Shown here: positions 1 through 23,955 of the stretch, piece after piece
How the letters are laid out: every line of letters begins with the position of its first letter
Numbering within the stretch: position 1 is the first letter of the stretch
From: Patescibacteria group bacterium
GTDB taxonomy: Bacteria > Patescibacteriota > Minisyncoccia > Minisyncoccales > UBA5738
NCBI GenBank assembly: GCA_022710775.1
Contig: JAKLGH010000002.1
Span: 12,707-76,706, forward strand
DNA length: 64,000 nt
Direction: 5' to 3'
Notes under the pieces: generated by a model
Seen by the model: the letters and a program-made list of their open reading frames with translations, nothing else
What the model was told of the DNA's origin: nothing
The model's database searches: none
Program-made: the position numbers and the translations under genes

Positions 1-1140
1 AGACTGGATGCGCTGATGAAAGCGGTTCAAAAACAAGGGTTGGAATACTGGTATGTTCCTCTTCTGTCGAGGACCCATGGCCAAGGCGCGCACGATATTA
101 TGTTCGGCAAAAGGTTTGCGTCTTATTTTGCCGATTTGGAGGCTGTGCTGCATTATCTCCGTTTTGCCAGGGAATACGTCCGGTTTGGAAGCATGGCGGA
201 TATGGTCGGAGATTACCAAAATACGTCGCCGGAATCCGAGCTGCTGGCGCTTGAAGCTATCGGCCTGAAACCTTATTACGGTGCAACCCAGATTTTACCC
301 CGCCTGATTCACGCTATTCTGGCTTCCTCGCTGACGGTGCTTAGCGGCGTGCTTGCTAAGATTGCCGAAGATATTCAACTCATGGCGCGCAGCCCGAATC
401 CGCTGGTCCAGGAAGCATTCGGTAAAAAACAGGTAGGATCAACGGCTAATCCGGCGAAAAAGAATACCATAAAGTCTGAGAATATAGTCGGTATGTTCCG
501 CCTTGGTATAGGCAACTTGGTGGCTCTATTGCAAAATTTGATTACCAAGGAGGAACGGGATATTTCCCAATCGTCAGTTGAGCGCGTTGCATTGATCGAT
601 CAATTCCATATCTTGGTTCAACAGCTGGACACAATGATCAGGCTGATAGACGGAATAGTAGTCTATCCGGATCGGATGTATCAGCAGATCATCGATATGC
701 GCGGCACCGAATTTGGCGAATCGGCAAAGGATGCGCTGGCGGAGTTTGGCCAAGATTTCGGGATAACGCCGGGCGATGCTTACAACATTATCAAGCTGGC
801 TTCGCACATCGTAATATATCCCGATGAATTGGAAGGCGAGATGCGGACCAATATTCCGCAAAATGCCGCCGAATCTGTGCTTGCTTTGAACCGGTGGGCA
901 AACCGCGAATTGAAGCGGCCGCCGCATATCAAATCTCTTATTGAGGATGGAGGCTTGCATTCGTTGCCGACCTTGGATATCAAGCCGGAAGAAATCCAGC
1001 GCTGGAAGATAGCGGTGGCATCCATGCTGGAAGTACCCGAAATTAAGAAAGCCTGGGATGGGGCTTTCGACATCGAGAGAATGCTTGCCGGCCAGGAAAT
1101 ACTGCGCCAAAAGCTGATGCAAGGCCACATGAACTATTAG
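1..1140 (+). CDS. Fumarate-lyase superfamily protein, adenylosuccinate-lyase-like; 5' end cut by window edge
   Basis: Frame is open from nt 1 (ORF track 16..1140). The signature-loop region reads GSTANPAKKNTIKSEN, a divergent form of the PurB/ASL motif GSSAMPHKRNPxxSEN. It lies about 140 aa in, so roughly 120 N-terminal residues are missing. A hairpin plus T-run follows the stop. Confidence 0.7.
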   Translation, partial: RLDALMKAVQKQGLEYWYVPLLSRTHGQGAHDIMFGKRFASYFADLEAVLHYLRFAREYVRFGSMADMVGDYQNTSPESELLALEAIGLKPYYGATQILPRLIHAILASSLTVLSGVLAKIAEDIQLMARSPNPLVQEAFGKKQVGSTANPAKKNTIKSENIVGMFRLGIGNLVALLQNLITKEERDISQSSVERVALIDQFHILVQQLDTMIRLIDGIVVYPDRMYQQIIDMRGTEFGESAKDALAEFGQDFGITPGDAYNIIKLASHIVIYPDELEGEMRTNIPQNAAESVLALNRWANRELKRPPHIKSLIEDGGLHSLPTLDIKPEEIQRWKIAVASMLEVPEIKKAWDGAFDIERMLAGQEILRQKLMQGHMNY

Positions 1141-1159
1141 CTTTAAAGCGGTTTCTTTT

Positions 1160-1188
1160 AAAGGATCTCAAAAGAGGTTCTTTTTTTT
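1160..1188 (+). terminator. Rho-independent terminator after the lyase gene
   Basis: aaaggatctc-aaaa-gaggttcttt stem (two G-U pairs) followed by a T8 run. Confidence 0.5.
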
Positions 1189-1215
1189 GACAAAAAGACG
1201 GAAATCCGATAAGTT
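1187..1215 (+). promoter_or_regulatory. Sigma70-like promoter (TTGACA-17 nt-TAAGTT)
   Basis: TTGACA at 1187-1192 overlaps the terminator T-run. TAAGTT lies at 1210-1215. Confidence 0.4.
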
Positions 1216-1501
1216 CTTTTTAACGGTTCATTAAAAATCATTATTTATATAGGGGTAGGAGGTGAAAGCATCAGAAAAAACCAGCTTCTTGTTTGGATGT
1301 TCGGAGGCCTTTGGATGGAGCGCAGGATGCGGGAGCTTGTTATTGGGACAGCTTTTTAGCTTCCCGCGGCCGGCTAAGCGCCAACCTATGTTGTTGCGCT
1401 ACCCAGCCTGGAATGTCCTCGCAGCCAACACTTATACGGGGTGTCTGATGAGATCTGCAATCGTCAAGCAAAAACTTGGCGGGCTATGGATGGCTTTCTA
1501 G

Positions 1502-1527
1502 AGCCTAAGCCTAAGCCTAAGCCTAAG
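1502..1527. repeat. Tandem hexamer repeat (AGCCTA)x4
   Basis: agcctaagcctaagcctaagcctaag read directly. It starts right after the stop of the doubtful ORF 1262..1501. Confidence 0.9.
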
Positions 1528-1543
1528 AAAGGTTGTGAGCTAT

Positions 1544-1572
1544 ATCCAGCCGTATCCCTTAAGGAGGTGATC
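1544..1572 (+). other. Segment with extended complementarity to the universal 16S rRNA 3' terminus
   Basis: ATCCAGCCG (1544-1552) and TTAAGGAGGTGATC (1559-1572) are complements of 16S CGGCUGGAU and GAUCACCUCCUUAA, in swapped order relative to the rRNA. Confidence 0.6.
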
Positions 1573-1850
1573 TGATCAAGGGAGCCTACGCCTTTCTGCG
1601 CCGCGCCGTTATGACGGGGATAGCGACAAAGCAATGCGTTATAACGAGCGGTTTGACCGGTAGTCCGCGTTCTTCAGCCAATGCGAGAAAGACGAGGATA
1701 AGCTCGGTTCTGCGGCCAAGGCTGTTATATGCCGGAACCGGTCCGCCCGGTTTTGAAAATTTTTGCTTTTTGGCCTAAGCGGCCGCCGGCCGCCCACGGC
1801 TTGTCCAGAAGATGGAATAATATCCGAGAGCGAAAAGGAGGTGAAAAACT

Positions 1851-2123
1851 ATGCTCGCAGTGCTGACATTAGCACTGGTCGCTTTCGCAATCCTGCTGGC
1901 AACGGCCATGAACACTAATGACGCTGGCGATGTGCCCGGCCGATCGTTCACGGAGCTGTATAGAATCTTTGCTTCGCCATTGCTGGTAATGCTTGCGATC
2001 GCGGCAGTGTGCTTGGCGCTTGGTCCCGGACCGCCCGCATCCATAGCTGGCTCCTCGGGAGTTTCTTGCACCAGCGTTTCTAGCGACAACGGCGCTTCTT
2101 CGAACTATGCCAGAGACCACTAA
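1851..2123 (+). CDS. Hypothetical small membrane protein (90 aa, two predicted TM segments)
   Basis: AGGAGGTGA lies 9 nt upstream of the ATG. Hydrophobic stretches are MLAVLTLALVAFAILLATA and LLVMLAIAAVCLAL. A terminator lies at 2205-2229. Confidence 0.45.
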   Translation: MLAVLTLALVAFAILLATAMNTNDAGDVPGRSFTELYRIFASPLLVMLAIAAVCLALGPGPPASIAGSSGVSCTSVSSDNGASSNYARDH

Positions 2124-2204
2124 CAGGCTGAAACTGTTCGCGCCAACGCCAATTGATCCAAAAGATTCTGAAGCAACCGAAAATCCAGCTGATACCAGTA
2201 TTTT

Positions 2205-2229
2205 AGGACGGAAAACCGTCCTTTTTTTT
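2205..2229 (+). terminator. Rho-independent terminator
   Basis: aggacgg-aaaa-ccgtcct followed by T8. Confidence 0.7.
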
Positions 2230-2255
2230 GACAAGCGGCGGTTTTTTAGTAGAAT
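2228..2255 (+). promoter_or_regulatory. Sigma70-like promoter (TTGACA-16 nt-TAGAAT)
   Basis: TTGACA at 2228-2233 overlaps the preceding T-run. TAGAAT lies at 2250-2255. Confidence 0.55.
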
Positions 2256-2833
2256 AGTTTTAGCAACTTAAAAAGGAGGTGAATACCGAACGCTATTATG
2301 GCTATAGCTATGGTCGTTGGCGCTTGAACTATTCCGCGAGTTTACCCCTCGTCCCGAACAGGGCTTGATCAAGCGGTTCCTTTATGGAACGGTAACTGCC
2401 AAGACTCCGCAAGGCTAGATGCTTTGCGTAAGCAGAGAGATAATACTTGGTTTTCATAGGAGGTGAAACAGAAGTAATGAAACATATTGCTTCCAGCAGC
2501 CGCACCATTACCGACGAGACGCCTTGAGCAGATTCCATTGTCTCTAAGAGGCAGGATGACATGGTGTTAACCTGGCTGTCCGAAAGGACGAAGCTCGATT
2601 GGGAATACCCATCTATTCCAGTTAGCGTTCTGGTTTTAAAAACGAAACACTGGAGGATATTCGGTTAATGAAGAAACTAGCCAGTTTCCCCGGCGGAGCC
2701 ATCTTATAGGCCAAAGTTGAGATGGCGATAATCCGTGGCACAGCTTAAAGAGATTTCGCCCTGCGCAGTTTTATTCCTGCCTTTCTGCCCAGGCATAAAA
2801 AGGCGGGAAGGGTCAAAGGAGGTCCCCCTGGTC

Positions 2834-2899
2834 ATGAGAAAAATGATAGCCGTACTGGTCATCATCGCGATGGCCGTAGTCGGGATGGCCGGCGCATAA
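2834..2899 (+). CDS. Candidate 21-aa hydrophobic micro-protein (MRKMIAVLVIIAMAVVGMAGA)
   Basis: AGGAGGT at 2817-2823 lies 11 nt upstream of the ATG. The peptide is a single TM-like stretch, and a strong terminator lies about 50 nt downstream. It is below the ORF-track length cutoff. Confidence 0.3.
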   Translation: MRKMIAVLVIIAMAVVGMAGA

Positions 2900-2947
2900 A
2901 TTGCTCACTCGCTTTATGAGGCTGTCTTTCACCGACACAAATTAAAC

Positions 2948-2973
2948 GCTGGTTAACAAGAACCAGCTTTTTT
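2948..2973 (+). terminator. Rho-independent terminator
   Basis: gctggtt-aacaag-aaccagc followed by TTTTTT. Confidence 0.7.
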
Positions 2974-3046
2974 CTTGGAATTTTTTCCTTATTTTTTTAA
3001 TCGATTCTAGCCATTAATCAATAAAGAGGTAATATAAGATATATCT

Positions 3047-4207
3047 ATGGAGAACAAGAAACAACTGGGCCAGTTTTTTACCACAAATTCCGACCAGATA
3101 CTGGTTGGCCTAAATAAATACGTAAGAGGGAAGAAAGTGGCTGATCCGTTTGCCGGAAATAGTGATTTGTTAAAATGGGCAAAAAAAGAAGGCGCGAAGA
3201 GTGTCGAAGGTTTTGATATTGATAAAAAATTCGTCAACAATAAGGATGTTTTTTTTAACGACAGCCTTCTTTTCCCCAAAAAATATGAATTTGTGTTAAC
3301 CAATCCTCCATATTTAAATATAAATAAGGCTGATAAAACCACTAAAGAAAAATATTTTGCTAACGGCTTCGAAGATCTATATCAACTGGCTTTGATTTCA
3401 ATTATGGATAGCGATGAGGGGATTGTAATCGTTCCAATAAATTTTTTATCTGCTGAAAATTCAAAAAAAACCAGAAATGCCTTTTTTTCAAAGTTTGAAA
3501 TAGTGGAAATGAATTACTATAAAAACCAAGTATTTTCAGATACAACATACAATGTAATCGTTTTTTATTATAAAAAGAAAAAAGACGCATTTGATTGTTG
3601 CTTTAACATTAAAGCACATTTATATCCTGACAAAAAAAACATAAATATTAAATTGGAAAAAAAATACGGGTGGATGATTGGTGGTAGCTTTATTAATTGC
3701 ATTAAAAATCAAAAAAACGAATTAAAAATTTATCGTCTCCAAGAAAAAGACTTAATAAAAGGAAATCAAGAAATCAAAATGGCTTATAACCATATAAAAG
3801 AACAAAAAATTTATTCAGTAACCGATAAAAACATGGAGCTTGTTAGGGCAAACATAATTTTACTTAAAGCGATTGATAGTGGAAGCGAAAAAGGGAAAAT
3901 TGCCCTCGAGGACATTAGGGACTATAAATTAGATGGTTTAGTGAGTAAGCCAACTTCCAGACACATGGTGCAATTGATTTTTGAAAAGCAGATAACCATA
4001 AATGAGCAAAGAGAGATTATTAAAGTGTTCAACGATGAATTGGAAAATCTAAGAAAGAAATACAACTCTTTATTTTTAACAAATTATCGAGATAATGATC
4101 GAAAAAGAATTTCTTTTAACTTTACGTACAAATTAATCAATTATTTGTACGTGAACAAGCTTCACAATATATCGCAAGAAACGCAGGATGAGAAATTATT
4201 AGCTTAA
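3047..4207 (+). CDS. Type II N6-adenine DNA methyltransferase (gamma-class motif order)
   Basis: LGQFFTT (motif X), ADPFAGNSDL (motif I, AdoMet binding) and LTNPPYL (motif IV, NPPY). The region is visibly AT-rich compared with its flanks. Confidence 0.85.
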   Translation: MENKKQLGQFFTTNSDQILVGLNKYVRGKKVADPFAGNSDLLKWAKKEGAKSVEGFDIDKKFVNNKDVFFNDSLLFPKKYEFVLTNPPYLNINKADKTTKEKYFANGFEDLYQLALISIMDSDEGIVIVPINFLSAENSKKTRNAFFSKFEIVEMNYYKNQVFSDTTYNVIVFYYKKKKDAFDCCFNIKAHLYPDKKNINIKLEKKYGWMIGGSFINCIKNQKNELKIYRLQEKDLIKGNQEIKMAYNHIKEQKIYSVTDKNMELVRANIILLKAIDSGSEKGKIALEDIRDYKLDGLVSKPTSRHMVQLIFEKQITINEQREIIKVFNDELENLRKKYNSLFLTNYRDNDRKRISFNFTYKLINYLYVNKLHNISQETQDEKLLA

Positions 4208-4218
4208 TAGAATATATT

Positions 4219-5133
4219 ATGGATAATATTAAATTATTAGATTATTCAATATTAAACAAAGAGCAGGCTTTAGATCCCGCTTATATGTTTATTGAAAAGG
4301 ATAGAGATTTGCCTAAATACGTTGAAAAAACTAAAAAAATTAAAAATATTTTAATTGCTATTAAGGAGGTTTCCAATAAGAAAAGCTCGACCGAGGTTAT
4401 AGCTACTCTATTTGCAGATTTAAAAGAAAATTTGAAGGACTTTTCCCAATTCTCTGAGTTTAGTTGTTTCATTAACGCCTGCGATTCGAGCTTAAACTAT
4501 GCAACAATGAACGAGGAGCTATTAAAGAAAATTACCGCTTACTATTTGCAAAAAAGAGATTTAAATGAATTTGTACCTTCCGAATGGATACAAGCATTGA
4601 TAGACAAGACATCGTCTCGAAAAAAAGGGCAAGTTGGTGAAGTTAAGTTAATAAATATTCTAAAAAAAAGCGGATATTGTTATACGGAGAATTATTTAGA
4701 ATTTATTAAAGCTAAAAAATCTGTTGCTTGTTTTCGAAATGATTTTACTCTTAAGAATATAAAAAAGAATCTAAAAATTTCCATCGGTAAGGATACTCAA
4801 AGCAAAAAATTGGATTTATGCATAAAGAAGGGTAAAGAGATTTATTTCTTAGAAGCGAAACATGTAAACAATGAGGGCGGGGAACAAAACAAACAAGTAT
4901 TGGAACTGATTAAGATAATTCAAGAAAAAAATGCCAATAATCACTATCATTACGTAAGTTTTCTCGACGGATTATATTTCGATTTACTTTTTAAAAGTAT
5001 TATTTCAGTGCCAAAGAAAAAAAGTGGTGAAAATAAGTTACTAAAACAACAAAAAGACATTCGCAAAGCTTTAAAAAACAACAGGAACAACTATTTTGTT
5101 AATACTGCGGGTTTTAAAAAGCTTTTTGGCTGA
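4219..5133 (+). CDS. Putative cognate type II restriction endonuclease (PD-(D/E)xK-like)
   Basis: It lies 11 nt downstream of the methyltransferase and shares its AT-rich composition. A candidate catalytic motif is KLDLCIKKGKEIYFLEAKH (D...E-x-K). No other recognisable family. Confidence 0.55.
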   Translation: MDNIKLLDYSILNKEQALDPAYMFIEKDRDLPKYVEKTKKIKNILIAIKEVSNKKSSTEVIATLFADLKENLKDFSQFSEFSCFINACDSSLNYATMNEELLKKITAYYLQKRDLNEFVPSEWIQALIDKTSSRKKGQVGEVKLINILKKSGYCYTENYLEFIKAKKSVACFRNDFTLKNIKKNLKISIGKDTQSKKLDLCIKKGKEIYFLEAKHVNNEGGEQNKQVLELIKIIQEKNANNHYHYVSFLDGLYFDLLFKSIISVPKKKSGENKLLKQQKDIRKALKNNRNNYFVNTAGFKKLFG

Positions 5134-12591: not shown

Positions 12592-12984
12592 ATGGAAATA
12601 GAAAAATTTGAAAAACTTGTAGCCGAGGCGATCAACAGCTTGCCCGAACATATCTTAAAAGCCGTTAACAACACCGCGATCGTCATCGAGGAAAAATCGC
12701 CCCGGCGGTCATTGCTCGGTTTATATGAAGGAATTCCGGAAAACGAGTGGGGCAAGGGGATGGGAATGAACTTGCCCGACAAGATCACTATTTTCAAAAA
12801 CACGATCGAAAGATTGGCGTCATCTCCGGCGGAGTTGAAAGAAGCGGTTAAAATCGTGGTTTGGCACGAGATTGCCCACCACTTTGGTTTTGACGAAGAG
12901 GAGGTGGATAAGCTGGAGAAGAAATGGCGCAAAAAACTAAAAAACCAAAAACCGAATAACGCAAAAAAAGCGCGGCCTTTTTAA
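12592..12984 (+). CDS. Zincin-like metallopeptidase family protein (DUF1025-like)
   Basis: A C-terminal HEIAHHFG metal-binding motif in a protein of about 130 aa. Confidence 0.7.
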   Translation: MEIEKFEKLVAEAINSLPEHILKAVNNTAIVIEEKSPRRSLLGLYEGIPENEWGKGMGMNLPDKITIFKNTIERLASSPAELKEAVKIVVWHEIAHHFGFDEEEVDKLEKKWRKKLKNQKPNNAKKARPF

Positions 12985-12992
12985 GATATGGT

Positions 12993-13020
12993 TTGATATT
13001 TTTTTAAAAAATATTATTAT
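12993..13020 (+). promoter_or_regulatory. Candidate promoter of RNA element copy A (TTGATA-16-TATTAT)
   Basis: TTGATA at 12993-12998 and TATTAT at 13015-13020. The ATTATTTTGT block is conserved in copy B, and as TATTATGTTGT in copy C. Confidence 0.4.
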
Positions 13021-13212
13021 TTTGTAGACCACGGGTAAGCCCTGGGAACAAAATGAAACTTACGGTTTCCTTCCCGCAAAAAAGCGGGAAGAAAGGAGGA
13101 GGACTTAGGTACTCCGCCCCGCATCCTGCGGGGGAGGAAGCATCCTCTGGTTGACAGGCGTGGTTTTATACCACGCCGGGCGAAACTCAAAAGGAAGAAT
13201 ACATAATTGATA
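13021..13212 (+). ncRNA. Copy A of the multi-copy structured RNA-like element (unclassified)
   Basis: A 28-nt block (gaccacgggtaagccctgggaacaaaat) is identical to copy B. Shared hairpins are GGAGG-aagcat-CCTCT and GCGTGG-ttttata-CCACGC, followed by CGGGCGAA. The shared 3' end is ggaagaatacataattgat. Confidence 0.5.
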
Positions 13213-13247
13213 TTGAGAGCGACATCTTAATTTTGGAGAGTTAAGCG

Positions 13248-13550
13248 ATGGATAAAGCAGAGGTAATTGAGGTAAAGAAAGTCGTTTTGGAGCCCGGCGA
13301 GTACGAAGTTATAAAGATCCTTGTTAAGGAATTCGCGTCCGGAGGCGAAGATTCCGGCCTTTTGCGAGAAGAAATAAAAGAACAGCTGAAAGATCTGATC
13401 CCGCTGGTTGCTCTCGCCGATTTAGCCTTAATTGAGAAGGAAATCGGTTTGCCTCCCGGCACGCTCGCGATAATCAGCGCAATGGCGGTCCAAAAGGCTT
13501 TAGAAGAAGCTAGCGGAAGCATTACCGTTTTTACGGTAAATAAAGAATAA
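13248..13550 (+). CDS. Hypothetical acidic protein (100 aa)
   Basis: An ORF with the SD-like GGAGAG 7 nt upstream. No recognisable motif. Confidence 0.55.
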   Translation: MDKAEVIEVKKVVLEPGEYEVIKILVKEFASGGEDSGLLREEIKEQLKDLIPLVALADLALIEKEIGLPPGTLAIISAMAVQKALEEASGSITVFTVNKE

Positions 13551-13584
13551 CGGGGAAAAACCTCGTTTTTTAATGGTTTTTCAA

Positions 13585-15204
13585 TCAGAGCTTTTTTATC
13601 ATATACGTTTCTTTTAAGGCATAGCCGGATTTTCGCCAGTAGGCGCGGGCGCCGACGCCCGAAATGGCCGCGATATTTTTGAAACCAAATTCTTTTTTTA
13701 CGATCTTTTCCGCTTCAAGAATCAATTTTTTCCCCAAACCTTGATGCTGGACCGCCACCAGGCGAGTCTCGCCATTATGGCGGACTGCCGACGCTTTTTC
13801 GGCCACGGCAAGCTGGAAGCCGTAAGTGTGGATTTCTCTTATCAGCGCGGCGTTTTTTAGCGCCGGAATTACCAATTCCGGATTTTGGCTCACGCGCAGG
13901 CGCAGCAGGCTGAAGATTTTGGTTTGATCTTTGTTTTCAAAGCTTAAAAAAATTTCCTGGCCGCCTGACGCGGAATACGTTCGGCGAACCGGAAAAACTT
14001 TTTCATTTGGATCGTAACCGCCTTTTACCTCCCGGCAGCGGATGCACTGGCATTGCCAATTTTCCTTTGCCATATCCGCGGCGATGATCTGGCGCAGGTT
14101 GGAAACGGTCTTGGCGCCCTCGGTAATCCGGGGGGAGGGAATGTCGCGGATGATCCGTTCGATCCTGACATAAGGAGGAATAATTTTTTTTATTTCCTTG
14201 ATAACCTCCGTGAGCTTTTTGTCCGAATATGGTTTGAATGATCCTTGTTTGTAAATTTTATAAAGCGGTGCTTCAGGCAAGACGGCGCAAGGATAAATCT
14301 TGAGCGTGTCGGGCTGGAACCGTTCGTCGTTAAAAAGCGTTTTGACCATATTTAGGTCTTTCTGGGGCGAGGAGCCGTAAAGGTTAAGCATTATCTGGTA
14401 GGCGATTTTGAATCCGGCATTTTTCAAAAGATGGGTCGCTTTGACCGTAGAATCAACTTTATGGCCTCTTTGGTTTAAATCAAGTACATCGTTGTAAATG
14501 CTTTGAATGCCGAGCTCCACTTTGGTTATGCCCAAGTTTCTTAAGCTGATTATTTCTTTTGCGTCAATAAAGTCCGGCCGGGTTTCGACCGACAGCCCGA
14601 TGATCCGGCATTTGGCCGATTCGTTTATTTTTTGCTCCTGTTTTAGCGAACCGATTCTTTTTGGATTTTTAGATCCGTAATTATTACAGGCAAAAAAACA
14701 TTTTTTAACGAACGATTCCCGGTACGCTTTTTTATAGAAACTCCAGGTGCCGCCGATGATCCGCATTTCTATCTTGTCCACCGGATGGCCTTCTTCGGCC
14801 AGCATGCCGAGTCGTCCGGCGACCTGCTTTACCGGATCAAAATTCAAACGCTTGGCCCGTTCCGCCGCCGGTTCGCCCGAAAGATAGCTTTTTGGAAAAC
14901 CGGTTTCCTGGGGGCAATAAAGGCATGATCCGGGGCAGGGATAGGGCTTGGTAAGCACGGAAACATTGATGATGCCCGAAAGCGACCTAACGGGCCTTAC
15001 CCGTAATAAATTTCGGAGTTCTTGGCGGGAAGATTTTATTTTTCCGCCATCGAAGTCGTTTAATGCCGAAAGCAGATCGATGTTGCTTGGGTAGGGAATT
15101 TTAAATTCCGCGCAAATTTTTCGCTTAAACGCGTCCAGTTCCGCTTTTGTTCTCGGATCGGCCTGGACGAGTTTTTTGGCGATTGTTTCTTGGTCTTTCA
15201 TCAT
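13585..15204 (-). CDS. elp3: Elp3-like radical-SAM/GNAT tRNA uridine(34) modification enzyme
   Basis: A radical-SAM Cys cluster (PCPGSCLYCP) in a protein of about 540 aa, with a C-terminal GNAT region (QHQGLGKKLILEAEKI). Confidence 0.85.
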   Translation of the reverse strand: MMKDQETIAKKLVQADPRTKAELDAFKRKICAEFKIPYPSNIDLLSALNDFDGGKIKSSRQELRNLLRVRPVRSLSGIINVSVLTKPYPCPGSCLYCPQETGFPKSYLSGEPAAERAKRLNFDPVKQVAGRLGMLAEEGHPVDKIEMRIIGGTWSFYKKAYRESFVKKCFFACNNYGSKNPKRIGSLKQEQKINESAKCRIIGLSVETRPDFIDAKEIISLRNLGITKVELGIQSIYNDVLDLNQRGHKVDSTVKATHLLKNAGFKIAYQIMLNLYGSSPQKDLNMVKTLFNDERFQPDTLKIYPCAVLPEAPLYKIYKQGSFKPYSDKKLTEVIKEIKKIIPPYVRIERIIRDIPSPRITEGAKTVSNLRQIIAADMAKENWQCQCIRCREVKGGYDPNEKVFPVRRTYSASGGQEIFLSFENKDQTKIFSLLRLRVSQNPELVIPALKNAALIREIHTYGFQLAVAEKASAVRHNGETRLVAVQHQGLGKKLILEAEKIVKKEFGFKNIAAISGVGARAYWRKSGYALKETYMIKKL

Positions 15205-21913: not shown

Positions 21914-23020
21914 GTGCTATCAAAAAATATGGAAGAAGAAAATTTTATCGAAGAGCTGGATAAAAAGAGGAGGATTTTCTATTACGGCGGAATCGCGGCG
22001 GTGGTTTTTTCCTTTTTGATCTTGTATATTTTTGTTATTGCCGATATGCTCGGCGGCAGATCTGGCTTGGATGAAGAGAAGCCCGGAAACGGCCAAGTTT
22101 CAGAGGTGGGCGAGGGGCAGGAGGACGGAATATATCACGTGGAAGTAAAAACAAAAGATGATTGCCTGGATATGGATGATAAAAATGAGAGCCGAAAATG
22201 TCTTGATAATATTGCTCTGGACAGCGCTATAGACGATAACCTTTTTTCAAAGTGTAACGATATCGGAAATGAAAGCCTTCGAAACGACTGTATGCACCAG
22301 GTTGCCCATAACCAGGAAAGCATAGCCCTCTGCTTAAAAATTTCCGATGAAGCGATCAAAAAGACATGCGTTAGCGATGTGGCGATATCGTTGAAGGATC
22401 CGAGCGTTTGCAGCGCCGCTTTCCGTGAATCTTTCGAATTGAAAGAATGCCGCGATGTCGCGACAGCCTTTACGATAGCTTACAGCGGAAAAAAAGACGA
22501 TATCGGAGAATGTGCCGCAATCGAGACCAAAGAATATTCCAATTTGTGTTTTTTGAATTCTTACGTTTCCAAATATGGCGGCGATTGCGAAAAGATTCCC
22601 TCGGCTTATCGGCAGTATTGTATTGATTATAAGGCGATGGAAGCGGCCGAAAATCCGGAAGATTGCGATGTTGTTAAAGATTCCAACTATAAGGAATATT
22701 GTTTGAAGGTGGCGGAGGTGGGAGCTATCGAGGCGCGTTACTTTGATACCGACGGCGACGGAATTACGGATGGTAACGAGCTGTTTATGAAAACCGATCC
22801 CAAGAAAGTTGATACCGACGGCGACGGGATTAATGACGGCGCCGAATGGATTATTCTTGGAATCGATCCCGGTAATCCGGATACCGACGGCGACGGTTTA
22901 AACGATTCCCAGGAAATGCAGGATTACCGTACAAATCCCAAGAATCCGGATACCGACGGCGACGGAAGAAACGACGGTTTAGAGGTAAAAATGAAGAGGA
23001 ACCCATTGACCAAAGACTGA
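21914..23020 (+). CDS. Membrane-anchored protein with Cys-containing repeats and four thrombospondin-type-3-like Ca-binding repeats
   Basis: An N-terminal TM segment (YYGGIAAVVFSFLILYIFVI). The C-terminus has 4x DTDGDG(I/L/R)(T/N)D motifs. The start is uncertain (GTG at 21914 or ATG at 21929). Confidence 0.65.
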   Translation: MLSKNMEEENFIEELDKKRRIFYYGGIAAVVFSFLILYIFVIADMLGGRSGLDEEKPGNGQVSEVGEGQEDGIYHVEVKTKDDCLDMDDKNESRKCLDNIALDSAIDDNLFSKCNDIGNESLRNDCMHQVAHNQESIALCLKISDEAIKKTCVSDVAISLKDPSVCSAAFRESFELKECRDVATAFTIAYSGKKDDIGECAAIETKEYSNLCFLNSYVSKYGGDCEKIPSAYRQYCIDYKAMEAAENPEDCDVVKDSNYKEYCLKVAEVGAIEARYFDTDGDGITDGNELFMKTDPKKVDTDGDGINDGAEWIILGIDPGNPDTDGDGLNDSQEMQDYRTNPKNPDTDGDGRNDGLEVKMKRNPLTKD

Positions 23021-23043
23021 ATAAATTGCGTAAAAAATTTAGC

Positions 23044-23071
23044 TTGACATAAAAACGGTTACGGCTAGAAT
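23044..23071 (+). promoter_or_regulatory. Strong sigma70-like promoter (TTGACA-16-TAGAAT)
   Basis: TTGACA at 23044-23049 and TAGAAT at 23066-23071. No ORF follows. Confidence 0.6.
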
Positions 23072-23076
23072 GTATG

Positions 23077-23240
23077 TGAGGGGATGAGGGTTTTTACCCA
23101 ATAGGCAGAATGTTCTTCAGTGAAGGAGGTTAAGCAGGCCTAACAGCCTCTGCCAGGCTGTAGTTAAAACCTTAACTGATTTCATGTTGGACGCTTTCCC
23201 CTCACTAAAACCCACCGGAACGCCGGCGGTTTTTAGTTTT
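23077..23240 (+). ncRNA. Candidate structured small RNA (unclassified) with its own promoter and terminator
   Basis: A 9-bp closing stem, GTGAGGGGA (23076-84) with TCCCCTCAC (23197-205). Internal hairpins are GGGT-tttt-ACCC and ACAGCCT-ctgcc-AGGCTGT. A weak terminator, CCGG-aacg-CCGG..TTTTT, lies at 23212-23240. There is no SD or ORF. Confidence 0.45.
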
Positions 23241-23370
23241 CTAAAGCCTTTTGCTTTTTGTGCCCGTTTTGATAAAATAGCCTTAAAGAAAGGATCAAAA
23301 GGTTAAAAATTAACTAAGATACGCTGGTTTGACTGGCTTTGCGCTCGGATAATATCTATAATTCCGTAAG

Positions 23371-23955
23371 ATGCCGGATCAGTTAACCATCAGAAATTTT
23401 ATGCAGTATGAAATTGCCGTATCGGGGGCAGCGGAGATTTCCCATTGTTGCGATAAGATAATATTGGTTTCAAGGATAATCGGCCGGGAGATTGCCCGCC
23501 ATGGATGCAATCTGGTGACGGGCGCTACGACGGGAGTGCCTTATTTTTCCGCCGAAGGCTGCAGAGAGGCCGGAGGGTTTAATGTGGGTTTTTCGCCCGC
23601 TTCTTCGGAATCGGCTCATGTTAAAACCTATCGCCTGCCGGTTGAACCTTTTGACGTAATGATCTACACCGGTTCCGATTACGTGGGCAGGGATATTATT
23701 ATGACCAAATCGGCCGACGCAGTGATCATTATTTGCGGCCGGATCGGAACTTTGCATGAATTTGCGACAGCTTTCGAATGCCGGAAAATCATCGGTATTC
23801 TGGAGGGTTCGGGCGGCACCGCGGATAAAATTCGGTCAATCGCCAACGGTCCGTATCGCGTATCAAAAAAAATCATTTACGATAAAGATCCTGTACGGCT
23901 GGTAGAAAGGGTCGTAGCGGCGATCAAAAAGGAGAAGAAGAAAACCGATATCTAG
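23371..23955 (+). CDS. LOG/TIGR00725-like Rossmann-fold nucleotide-binding protein
   Basis: VSGAA...LVTGATTGVPY...GGFNVGFSP...ICGRIGTLHEF pattern. An alternative start is the ATG at 23401. Confidence 0.6.
   Translation: MPDQLTIRNFMQYEIAVSGAAEISHCCDKIILVSRIIGREIARHGCNLVTGATTGVPYFSAEGCREAGGFNVGFSPASSESAHVKTYRLPVEPFDVMIYTGSDYVGRDIIMTKSADAVIIICGRIGTLHEFATAFECRKIIGILEGSGGTADKIRSIANGPYRVSKKIIYDKDPVRLVERVVAAIKKEKKKTDI

Follow-up and report, generated by a model that had tools for sequence, protein, structure and literature searches.

What is encoded by a conserved 1.8-kb interval in which gene callers find no more than one or two genes? The interval in question is located between a Lyase_1 gene (16–1140) and a low-GC restriction-modification (R-M) island (3047–5133) in a stretch of 64,000 nucleotides from contig JAKLGH010000002.1 of a Patescibacteria group bacterium; this whole stretch is referred to below as the window, and positions are counted from its first nucleotide. 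A preliminary description of the sequence had delimited two promoter-to-terminator units with repeated extended Shine-Dalgarno (SD) sequences and almost no conventional coding capacity, and had proposed either a battery of micro-proteins or one or two large structured RNAs. Comparison with related loci speaks for the former. The locus probably consists of two adjacent, conserved mRNAs, themselves likely abundant, that encode a set of micro-proteins: as judged from sequence comparison, at least four coding frames in it are under selection (A1, B, C, and G), and three further micro-open reading frames (micro-ORFs D, E, and F) are conserved. The comparison does not support a large non-coding RNA or a new class of RNA.

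Coding frames behind extended Shine-Dalgarno sequences

Related loci were recovered through look-ups of exact proteins and one DNA-pattern match (L028, which equals L029–34 and originates from a Nealsonbacteria metagenome-assembled genome (MAG)). They represent 11 lineages of Paceibacteria/Nealsonbacteria: the window strain, L016, L019, L010, L017, L020, L021/22, L035, L036, L028, and L037/38. No relatives were obtained from scans of genome contigs with the lyase or the C alignment, from a metagenome scan with the C alignment, or from a DNA-pattern search of viral contigs. The segment 1183–2977 aligns over its full length across lineages with 72–86% identity. In the comparison of the window strain with L010, identity is 72.5% for the locus and 68–79% for the flanking housekeeping genes; the locus is present in relatives and conserved about as well as these neighbours, which implies selection comparable to that on coding sequence. 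Coding was assessed from counts of the fewest changes that each alignment column requires, sorted by codon position (with approximate P values), and from the ratio of nonsynonymous to synonymous changes (pN/pS) in the three frames.

The sequence AGGAGGTGA, for which the preliminary description had counted five sites and found no others by eye, occurs exactly five times, all within 1.2 kb, with zero other copies on both strands of the 64 kb; shuffled sequences held 0.19 copies on average and none of 100 reached five. It is predicted to pair with the anti-SD at the 3′ end of 16S rRNA; the window itself contains no rRNA. The shorter AGGAGGT is also found ahead of G. In the rest of the window, GGAGG stands ahead of only a minority of genes, and GGAGGTG is rare and mostly intragenic. 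The latter motif is concentrated in the locus in every lineage, as in L010, where four copies are found in 1.7 kb versus none in 14.9 kb. Further SD-like motifs (AGGAGGTGG, AAGGAGGAGG, and AAGGAGGTT) were observed at 12900, 13095 (gap 12984–13585), 23125 (gap 23020–23371), and 36458. They lie in or beside gene-poor gaps, are followed by no long ORF, and may mark further unannotated small ORFs (sORFs).

The ATC-started frames are, on the substitution evidence, the best-supported new coding frames of the locus: the alignments show that A1 and B evolve as coding sequence and that a non-AUG codon, the SD, and the spacing between them are conserved. An ATC exactly 7 nt after AGGAGG had been pointed out in the preliminary description and is found at 1270 and 1575, but the two frames, there considered to lack protein-like character, evolve in a codon-like manner. 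In all 15 instances with a full SD, the non-AUG start lies exactly 7 nt past the GGAGG of GGAGGTG(A/G); the contigs L020 and L035, which begin inside the SD of A, retain the GTG..ATC register unchanged.

In A1, changes at codon positions 1, 2, and 3 number 13, 11, and 25 (nine lineages; P = 0.008), and pN/pS is 0.38 compared with 0.78 and 1.58 in the other two frames. The peptide I[RS]KxQLLxWxFGGLWxERRMR, which precedes a tail of variable sequence, is kept by means of synonymous changes, such as CAG CTT CTT to CAA CTG CTG in L037. The start codon is ATC in eight lineages and GTC in L037/L038 (two independent contigs; L037 386–460 and L038 156–230), where the spacing of 7 nt is the same and the peptide is still conserved through synonymous changes. 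The upstream in-frame codons of A1 (GGA GGT GAA AGC) include no start codon. The frame of B is conserved at both ends (N-terminus IKGA[YC]AFLRR..TGI, C-terminus RPRLL[YH]AGTGPP) with a middle that is free to vary, while the spacing between the two blocks is always a multiple of three. Its first 17 codons carry 4, 7, and 19 changes by codon position (P = 0.0007), with a pN/pS of 0.21 versus about 1.0 in the other frames. No in-frame stop is present in B in any of eight lineages, compared with 26 and 8 in the other two frames. The start of B is ATC in five lineages, ATT in two, and ATA in one. An in-frame TAA or TGA directly precedes the SD in most lineages, and the codon preceding the start varies (CTG, TCT, TTG, TCG, TTA, TTT), TTG being present in L019 and L028 only. 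A gene caller had annotated B in the Nealsonbacteria MAG (P0009). In the variable A–B spacer, a perfect (AGCCTA)x4.3 repeat at 1502–1527 (+) was observed in the window lineage only.

Other ways of reading this region were rejected. Long overlapping ORFs do exist, as the preliminary description had stated, but stop codons interrupt the 79-aa ORF at 1262–1501 in L016, L020, L028, and L037, and of its three codon positions the second varies most; the codon-like substitution pattern that had been suggested as a test of this ORF is negative for it and positive for the overlapping ATC frame. A leaderless GUG start at 1262, prompted by the ends of short contigs (see below), would use the same stop-broken frame. 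An alternative genetic code is not indicated, with frames closing at TAA, TAG, and TGA, and D always at TGA.

Among the ATG-started cistrons, whose SD spacing is 8–18 nt, C and G also evolve as coding sequences. Homologues of C form 16 clusters at 90% identity (eight representatives in the library clustered at 50%), and changes in C amount to 73, 63, and 96 by codon position (P = 0.006), with synonymous changes within the invariant GPGPP. The AlphaFold2 (AF2) model of C, which is of low confidence (pLDDT 65), contains two long helices separated by a short one, together with a weak beta hairpin, and C is predicted to be a small membrane protein with two hydrophobic helices. Directly 3′ of the C stop, most relatives possess an 8-codon ORF (MKQTMPTG; e.g., L019 at about 1030–1056), which in the window is removed by a 21-nt deletion (about 2100–2125) that also alters the C-terminus of C. 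In G, changes by codon position are 7, 3, and 11, and those in the last five codons 1, 1, and 5 across eight lineages. The ending of G is kept at the protein level in all eight, including L017, which has lost the hydrophobic core. The lowest pN/pS values are found in exactly the A1, B, C, and G frames. Searches of Pfam and NCBIfam with A1(+A2), B, C, and G gave no match at E ≤ 1 and nothing beyond sub-threshold noise.

Only three SD sites had been thought to precede a workable ATG; five SD-led ATG ORFs are present, D (2298) and F (2668, behind GGAGGA) having been missed. Micro-ORF D is found in all lineages as 8–9 hydrophobic codons, mostly Ile, Val, and Ala, that end at TGA and undergo indels in frame, with an SD spacing of 18 nt in the window and 10–14 nt in most relatives. 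The ATG, the SD, and a length of 14–16 codons are kept for E in seven lineages despite a frameshifting indel, and F is kept in five lineages at 12–13 codons with an in-frame indel. With seven SD-led ORFs in up to 11 lineages and third-position or synonymous patterns in A1, B, C, and G, the micro-protein battery is the one of the two earlier proposals that the comparison bears out.

Transcription units, short contigs, and local RNA folding

Unit 1 extends from promoter P1 at 1187 to terminator T1 at 2229 and unit 2 from promoter P2 at 2228 to terminator T2 at 2973 (Table 1). All four signals of these two units, as originally delimited, are present and conserved in relatives. The element TTAAC-GGTTCA-TTAA(C/A) at 1220–1235, immediately 3′ of the −10 of promoter P1, is kept in all lineages, and the conserved leader in which it lies may be a 5′ untranslated region (UTR) or an operator. 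With respect to a type I toxin-antitoxin system, in which an antisense RNA overlaps the gene of a hydrophobic toxin and the toxin SD is occluded, the promoter-like matches on the minus strand at 2467 and 1845 are simply the reverse complement of the SDs. The GC content is 49.6% in the locus, 50.0% in the upstream lyase gene, 45.4% in the window, and 29.8% in the R-M island; the earlier characterization of the locus as clearly more GC-rich than its neighbours was overstated, only the R-M island being much lower.

Table 1 Features of the locus, with positions in the window
Feature	Position	Strand	Remarks
Terminator of upstream Lyase_1 gene	1160..1186	+	Hairpin 1160–1183 and T-run merging into the −35 of promoter P1
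Promoter P1, TTGACA-17-TAAGTT	1187..1215	+	TAAATT in relatives; −35 invariant in all lineages reaching it
Conserved leader with TTAAC-GGTTCA-TTAA(C/A)	1216..1256	+	Conservation
Extended SD of A1, AGGAGGTGA	1257..1265	+	
sORF A1, 29 codons, ATC start	1270..1359	+	Codon-like substitution
A2, conserved segment	1360..1501	+	88–96% identity; missing in L010, L017, L036, L037
Extended SD of B	1562..1570	+	
sORF B, 67 codons (56–67 in relatives), ATC/ATT/ATA start	1575..1778	+	Codon-like substitution
Terminator-like hairpin and T-run	1733..1765	+	Hairpin 1733–1755; overlaps the end of B; GTGPP codons form the 5′ arm
B–C hairpin GCGGCC-GCC-GGCCGC	1779..1793	+	Two pairs with compensatory changes
Extended SD of C	1836..1844	+	
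Gene C, 90 aa	1851..2123	+	Two predicted hydrophobic helices, invariant GPGPP, Ser-rich tail
Conserved 3′ UTR of C	2124..2204	+	Conservation
Terminator T1	2205..2229	+	Hairpin 2205–2222; kept in all lineages; contigs L008, L020, L035 end at about 2185–2212
Promoter P2, TTGACA-16-TAGAAT	2228..2255	+	11/12 matches; conserved
Extended SD of D	2274..2282	+	
Micro-ORF D, 9 codons (MAIAMVVGA)	2298..2327	+	Conserved SD, ATG, and length
Helix P1, 2321–2327 (last codons and stop of D) with 2369–2375	2321..2375	+	Encloses hairpin 2348–2367
Hairpins P3 (2376–2390) and P4 (2405–2437)	2376..2437	+	P4 with two AU-to-GC double changes
Extended SD of E	2458..2466	+	
Micro-ORF E, 16 codons (MKHIASSSRTITDETP)	2477..2527	+	Conserved SD, ATG, and length
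SD of F, GGAGGA	2652..2657	+	
Micro-ORF F, 13 codons, MKKLASFPGGAIL	2668..2709	+	SD GGAGGA 2652–2657
Hairpin directly 5′ of the SD of G	2774..2809	+	Two pairs change on both sides
SD of G, AGGAGGT	2817..2823	+	
sORF G, 21 aa, hydrophobic (MRKMIAVLVIIAMAVVGMAGA)	2834..2899	+	C-terminus G-[ML]-A-G-A-stop
Terminator T2	2948..2973	+	Hairpin 2948–2967; conserved; contig L005 ends at 2952

The exact C protein is encoded on long metagenome contigs and, in addition, on five contigs of 0.95–1.7 kb from five samples. These five are 99.9–100% identical to the window and none of them reaches upstream of 1239 or downstream of 2952: L008 starts at 1239, and L005 starts at 1261 and ends in T2. Two more short contigs, from related lineages (L020 and L035), start at the equivalent of 1262 and end at T1, so that three of the seven start at 1261/1262 and three of the seven end at T1. 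For MetK, a housekeeping neighbour, there was only one short contig. This pattern suggests that the short contigs were assembled from transcripts and that transcription of the locus is abundant; unit 1 appears to form an RNA of its own, from which some transcription continues into unit 2. The start shared by contigs from three different lineages and samples may represent an RNA processing site, a second transcription start site, or a library artefact. As regards a stable, 5′-trimmed RNA with an end defined by a ribosome at the strong SD, the starts of these putatively RNA-derived contigs are 1239 and 1261/1262 (three lineages), the latter within the SD and not upstream of it. In L007, nt 1–30 are the reverse complement of window 1318–1347, an inverted 30-nt artefact; inverted chimeras of this kind are typical of cDNA or transcript assembly.

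No Rfam family was matched in the locus at the gathering score or E ≤ 10 (best in 1100–3050, E = 3.7–4.7), in agreement with the earlier statement that no known family was recognizable; the gathering-score matches in the window are tRNAs elsewhere. The RNAalifold covariation terms for whole modules are near zero (−0.24, +1.84, −0.16, and +0.12), and the single-sequence folding z scores are −0.08 for module A, −1.54 for module B, and −2.14 for unit 2 (20 shuffles for the last). Support for pairing is local. Across 14 hand-specified hairpins, 94% of the cells are paired and seven pairs change on both sides, compared with a mean of 2.4 in shuffles (0/500 reach seven) and 1–5 in slid controls. The compensatory support comes from the hairpin in the B–C spacer, P4, the hairpin before the SD of G, and helix P1, whereas the helices of module A never vary and are uninformative. 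The hairpin at the end of B is rebuilt from different bases in relatives, as is, by eye, the hairpin before the SD of G in L036 and L037; the SD of G itself is an exposed AAGGAGGT beside this hairpin and not within it. P3 is deleted as a unit in L017.

Helix P1 finds its partner 40–45 nt downstream in nine lineages, with compensatory changes at three of seven positions (C-G to T-A, C-G to T-A, and T-A to T-G to C-G). Because the stop of D lies in this covariation-supported helix, any translation of D must open it. No hairpin with a U-run is present between 2328 and 2476, and only further micro-ORFs follow downstream. A long-range pairing of 1273–1293 with the T2 region was rejected as a low-complexity or palindrome coincidence that is inconsistently kept in relatives (by eye).

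The surroundings of the locus are largely stable. The same NIF3-like gene is always found downstream, in most lineages with a conserved gene of ~180 aa between it and the locus, and the upstream neighbour is a Lyase_1 gene (two types, both orientations) wherever the contig reaches it; the gene directly after T2 differs among lineages. Within the locus, L010 and L017 are without 1257–1560, L021 is without 1498–1791, L036 and L037 retain only the first ~20 codons of module A ahead of C, and F is missing in L017, L036, and L037. The modules behave as cassettes gained or lost between lineages. In the distant relative L036, an extra upstream cassette at 3482–3575 consists of a promoter-like TTGACA, then GGAGGTGAA, and then a 26-aa ATG ORF (MPGPPAVAITGISTIAVCIASRSFML), which suggests that SD-led sORF cassettes come and go. 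The R-M island encodes a 386-aa putative methylase and a DpnII-like endonuclease, and its insertion point is exactly between T2 and the promoter that precedes the conserved gene of 180 aa. At this site L016 has a methylase only, and L010, L019, and L028 have no insertion.

Proposed mechanism and competing explanations

In the mechanism proposed for the two mRNAs, unit 1 would express C behind one or two leader ORFs (A1 and B). The long SD–anti-SD helix formed at AGGAGGUGA would position the weak AUC, AUU, or AUA codon, 7 nt downstream, in the P site, resulting in low initiation that is sensitive to initiation factor 3 (IF3). The same helix could retain a 30S subunit or a ribosome close to the 5′ end, by which the mRNA would be stabilized and the expression of C tuned; a near-cognate start combined with an extended SD would hold ribosomes at the 5′ end while the output of peptide is limited. 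In unit 2, D and probably E and F would be leader-type ORFs in which translation itself, rather than the product, matters, and their translation might remodel the RNA and set the translation of G. The likely end products would be the small membrane peptides C and G.

Several points weigh against this account. Translation of the ORFs is deduced from sequence comparison, and the 8–11 lineages compared are related and non-independent, which makes the P values approximate. Neither codon-position counts nor pN/pS reveal amino-acid constraint in D, E, and F, whose translation is suggested solely by the conserved SD, ATG, and length. The GTC start of A1 in L037/L038 is not a near-cognate codon. The RNA origin of the short contigs is inferred, and a literature search on their Joint Genome Institute (JGI) sample numbers returned nothing; moreover, the 5′ ends at 1261/1262 fall inside the SD of A, so that A1 would be without its SD if this were the mature 5′ end. 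The stabilization by an SD-bound ribosome and the regulation of C are proposed by analogy, and the micro-protein model leaves A2 (1360–1501) unexplained.

The unexplained A2 is one of the features that an RNA-based explanation would accommodate. Here, the locus would produce one or two large structured non-coding RNAs in which the exposed AGGAGGUGA binds the 3′ end of 16S rRNA, acting as a sponge or sensor of ribosomes or 30S subunits, and the ORFs would be incidental. Five perfect anti-SD complements in 1.2 kb with none elsewhere, high nucleotide conservation that extends outside the ORFs, several local hairpins with compensatory changes, and a unit 2 that folds somewhat better than its shuffles (z = −2.1) are all compatible with such RNAs. 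However, Rfam gives no match, modules A, B, and D have covariation terms of about 0, the folding z scores of modules A and B are −0.08 and −1.5, and compensatory change is confined to local hairpins. Codon-like substitution and open frames in A1, B, C, and G, together with a conserved start codon at a fixed or workable distance after every SD, also argue against incidental ORFs, and this explanation is very improbable. A toxin/antidote or membrane-stress small-peptide operon of the Bacillus subtilis yrzI/spyTA type would share with the locus an architecture of several sORFs of 9–90 aa, internal promoters and terminators, and exceptionally long SDs. In that case G or C would be harmful at high dose, a co-encoded micro-peptide or tight turnover of the mRNA would neutralize it, and the strong SDs would mainly set mRNA stability. 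The 21-aa hydrophobic helix of G and the gain and loss of modules between lineages would fit. Toxin-antitoxin loci are typically mobile, whereas this locus is passed on vertically, its synteny with housekeeping genes being fixed, and its products show no similarity to any Pfam or NCBIfam family (PADLOC was not searched); such a function is unlikely, if somewhat less so than a large structured RNA.

A2 is the most conserved stretch of the locus and may represent local hairpins or coding sequence reached through a +1 frameshift. Neither consensus folding nor the hairpin analysis detected covariation in it. Under the frameshift explanation, module A would be one gene whose reading depends on a programmed +1 frameshift, as in prfB: A1 ends in UUU-UAG or UUU-UGA, and slippage of tRNA-Phe by +1 (putative slip region in the window, GGGACAGCUUUUUAGCUUCCC) would lead into the conserved frame SFPRPAKRQPML... 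from 1358. A1 indeed ends in UUU plus a U-starting stop in seven of seven lineages that have A2, and differently in two lineages without A2. The +1 shift enters the same conserved frame in six of the seven, and this frame has the lowest pN/pS in A2 (0.45) and a weak third-position excess (19/16/28, P = 0.04). On the other hand, a 2-nt deletion in L016 would require two shifts, the best-conserved 21 codons show no significant excess (3/6/9, P = 0.11), there are several radical replacements (L to P or S, R to G), located in would-be hairpin loops or bulges, and all three frames are fairly open across the conserved GC-rich A2. A single frameshifted gene is accordingly doubtful, and equally doubtful is its extension, in which A1 and A2 joined by a prfB-like +1 frameshift and tandem ORFs with an extended SD and an AUH (even GUC) start would sense the availability of ribosomes or IF3. 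If that sensor existed, it would bring 30S parking, mRNA stabilization, and gating of C synthesis together in a reduced cell of the candidate phyla radiation (CPR). Module A also contains a conserved direct repeat, GGxGGxCTxTGGATGG, at 1303–1318 (GGAGGCCTTTGGATGG) and 1478–1493 (GGCGGGCTATGGATGG), by which GGLWM is encoded at two places.

Interpreted as a pair of mRNAs for micro-proteins, the locus would provide, for a CPR lineage that is uncultivated, a clear comparative case of extended SD sequences that flag real small genes. It would also indicate that conserved AUC, AUU, and AUA starts can be recognized from sequence by their fixed 7-nt spacing and third-position substitution. C and G are candidate, apparently highly expressed membrane micro-proteins in Paceibacteria. 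Helix P1, which contains the D stop, and the terminator-like hairpin that overlaps the end of B are candidate translation-coupled RNA switches.

Comparison with known systems

The closest described system is yrzI/spyTA of B. subtilis, which encodes up to four peptides (17–52 aa) with several promoters and terminators and an SD that pairs at 11 of 12 positions with 16S rRNA (PMC12067863). In yrzI, an SD-bound ribosome sets the 5′ end and blocks RNase J1, giving an abundant and very stable mRNA (PMC12067863). The locus described here resembles it in having seven sORFs, two promoters, and two terminators plus one internal hairpin with a T-run. It differs in its CPR host, in the absence of sequence similarity, and in that every cistron has an extended SD and two use AUH starts. 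The comparison concerns architecture alone, the toxin/antidote and RNase J1/Rae1 roles belonging to B. subtilis.

For the starts of A1 and B, the relevant precedents are Staphylococcus aureus cvfC1 (AUU), ccpN (AUA), and infC (AUU/AUA), whose conserved start codons stand behind very strong, extended SDs at fixed spacing (PMC13009471); in Escherichia coli, AUA, AUC, and AUU initiate at about 1–2% of the level of AUG (bioRxiv 10.1101/063800). The locus shares with infC, cvfC1, and ccpN the AUU, AUC, or AUA start maintained across species, the very strong extended SD, and the fixed spacing, and cvfC1 likewise encodes a small protein (61 aa) that heads an operon. Unlike these genes, two such ORFs occur here in tandem on one transcript, upstream of a gene for a predicted small membrane protein; one lineage has GUC, and initiation is predicted from sequence.

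D resembles the trpL and ilvL attenuators and the erm and cat leaders as an Ile/Val-rich ORF of 8–9 codons near the 5′ end. Its end also lies within a conserved helix, so that a ribosome translating D would necessarily alter the fold downstream, and a hairpin with a T-run overlaps the end of B. In contrast to such leaders, no biosynthetic or resistance gene follows here, no U-run terminator comes after the D structure, and the "regulatory" codons are not fixed. Stabilizing STAB-SD elements (cryIIIA; hbs mRNA, PMC5737220) are similar in that a perfect long SD stands close to the 5′ end of a transcript with high expression, although they are without a translated ORF after it, whereas each SD here heads a conserved ORF. 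With OLE, GOLLD, HEARO, and ROOL RNAs, the locus has in common that it is long, conserved, apparently gene-poor, and seemingly highly expressed, but it matches no model, lacks extended covariation, and contains conserved coding frames. The locus most likely belongs to known kinds, as a small-peptide operon and as a case of near-cognate starts behind extended SDs, and what makes it unusual is the density at which the extended SDs occur.

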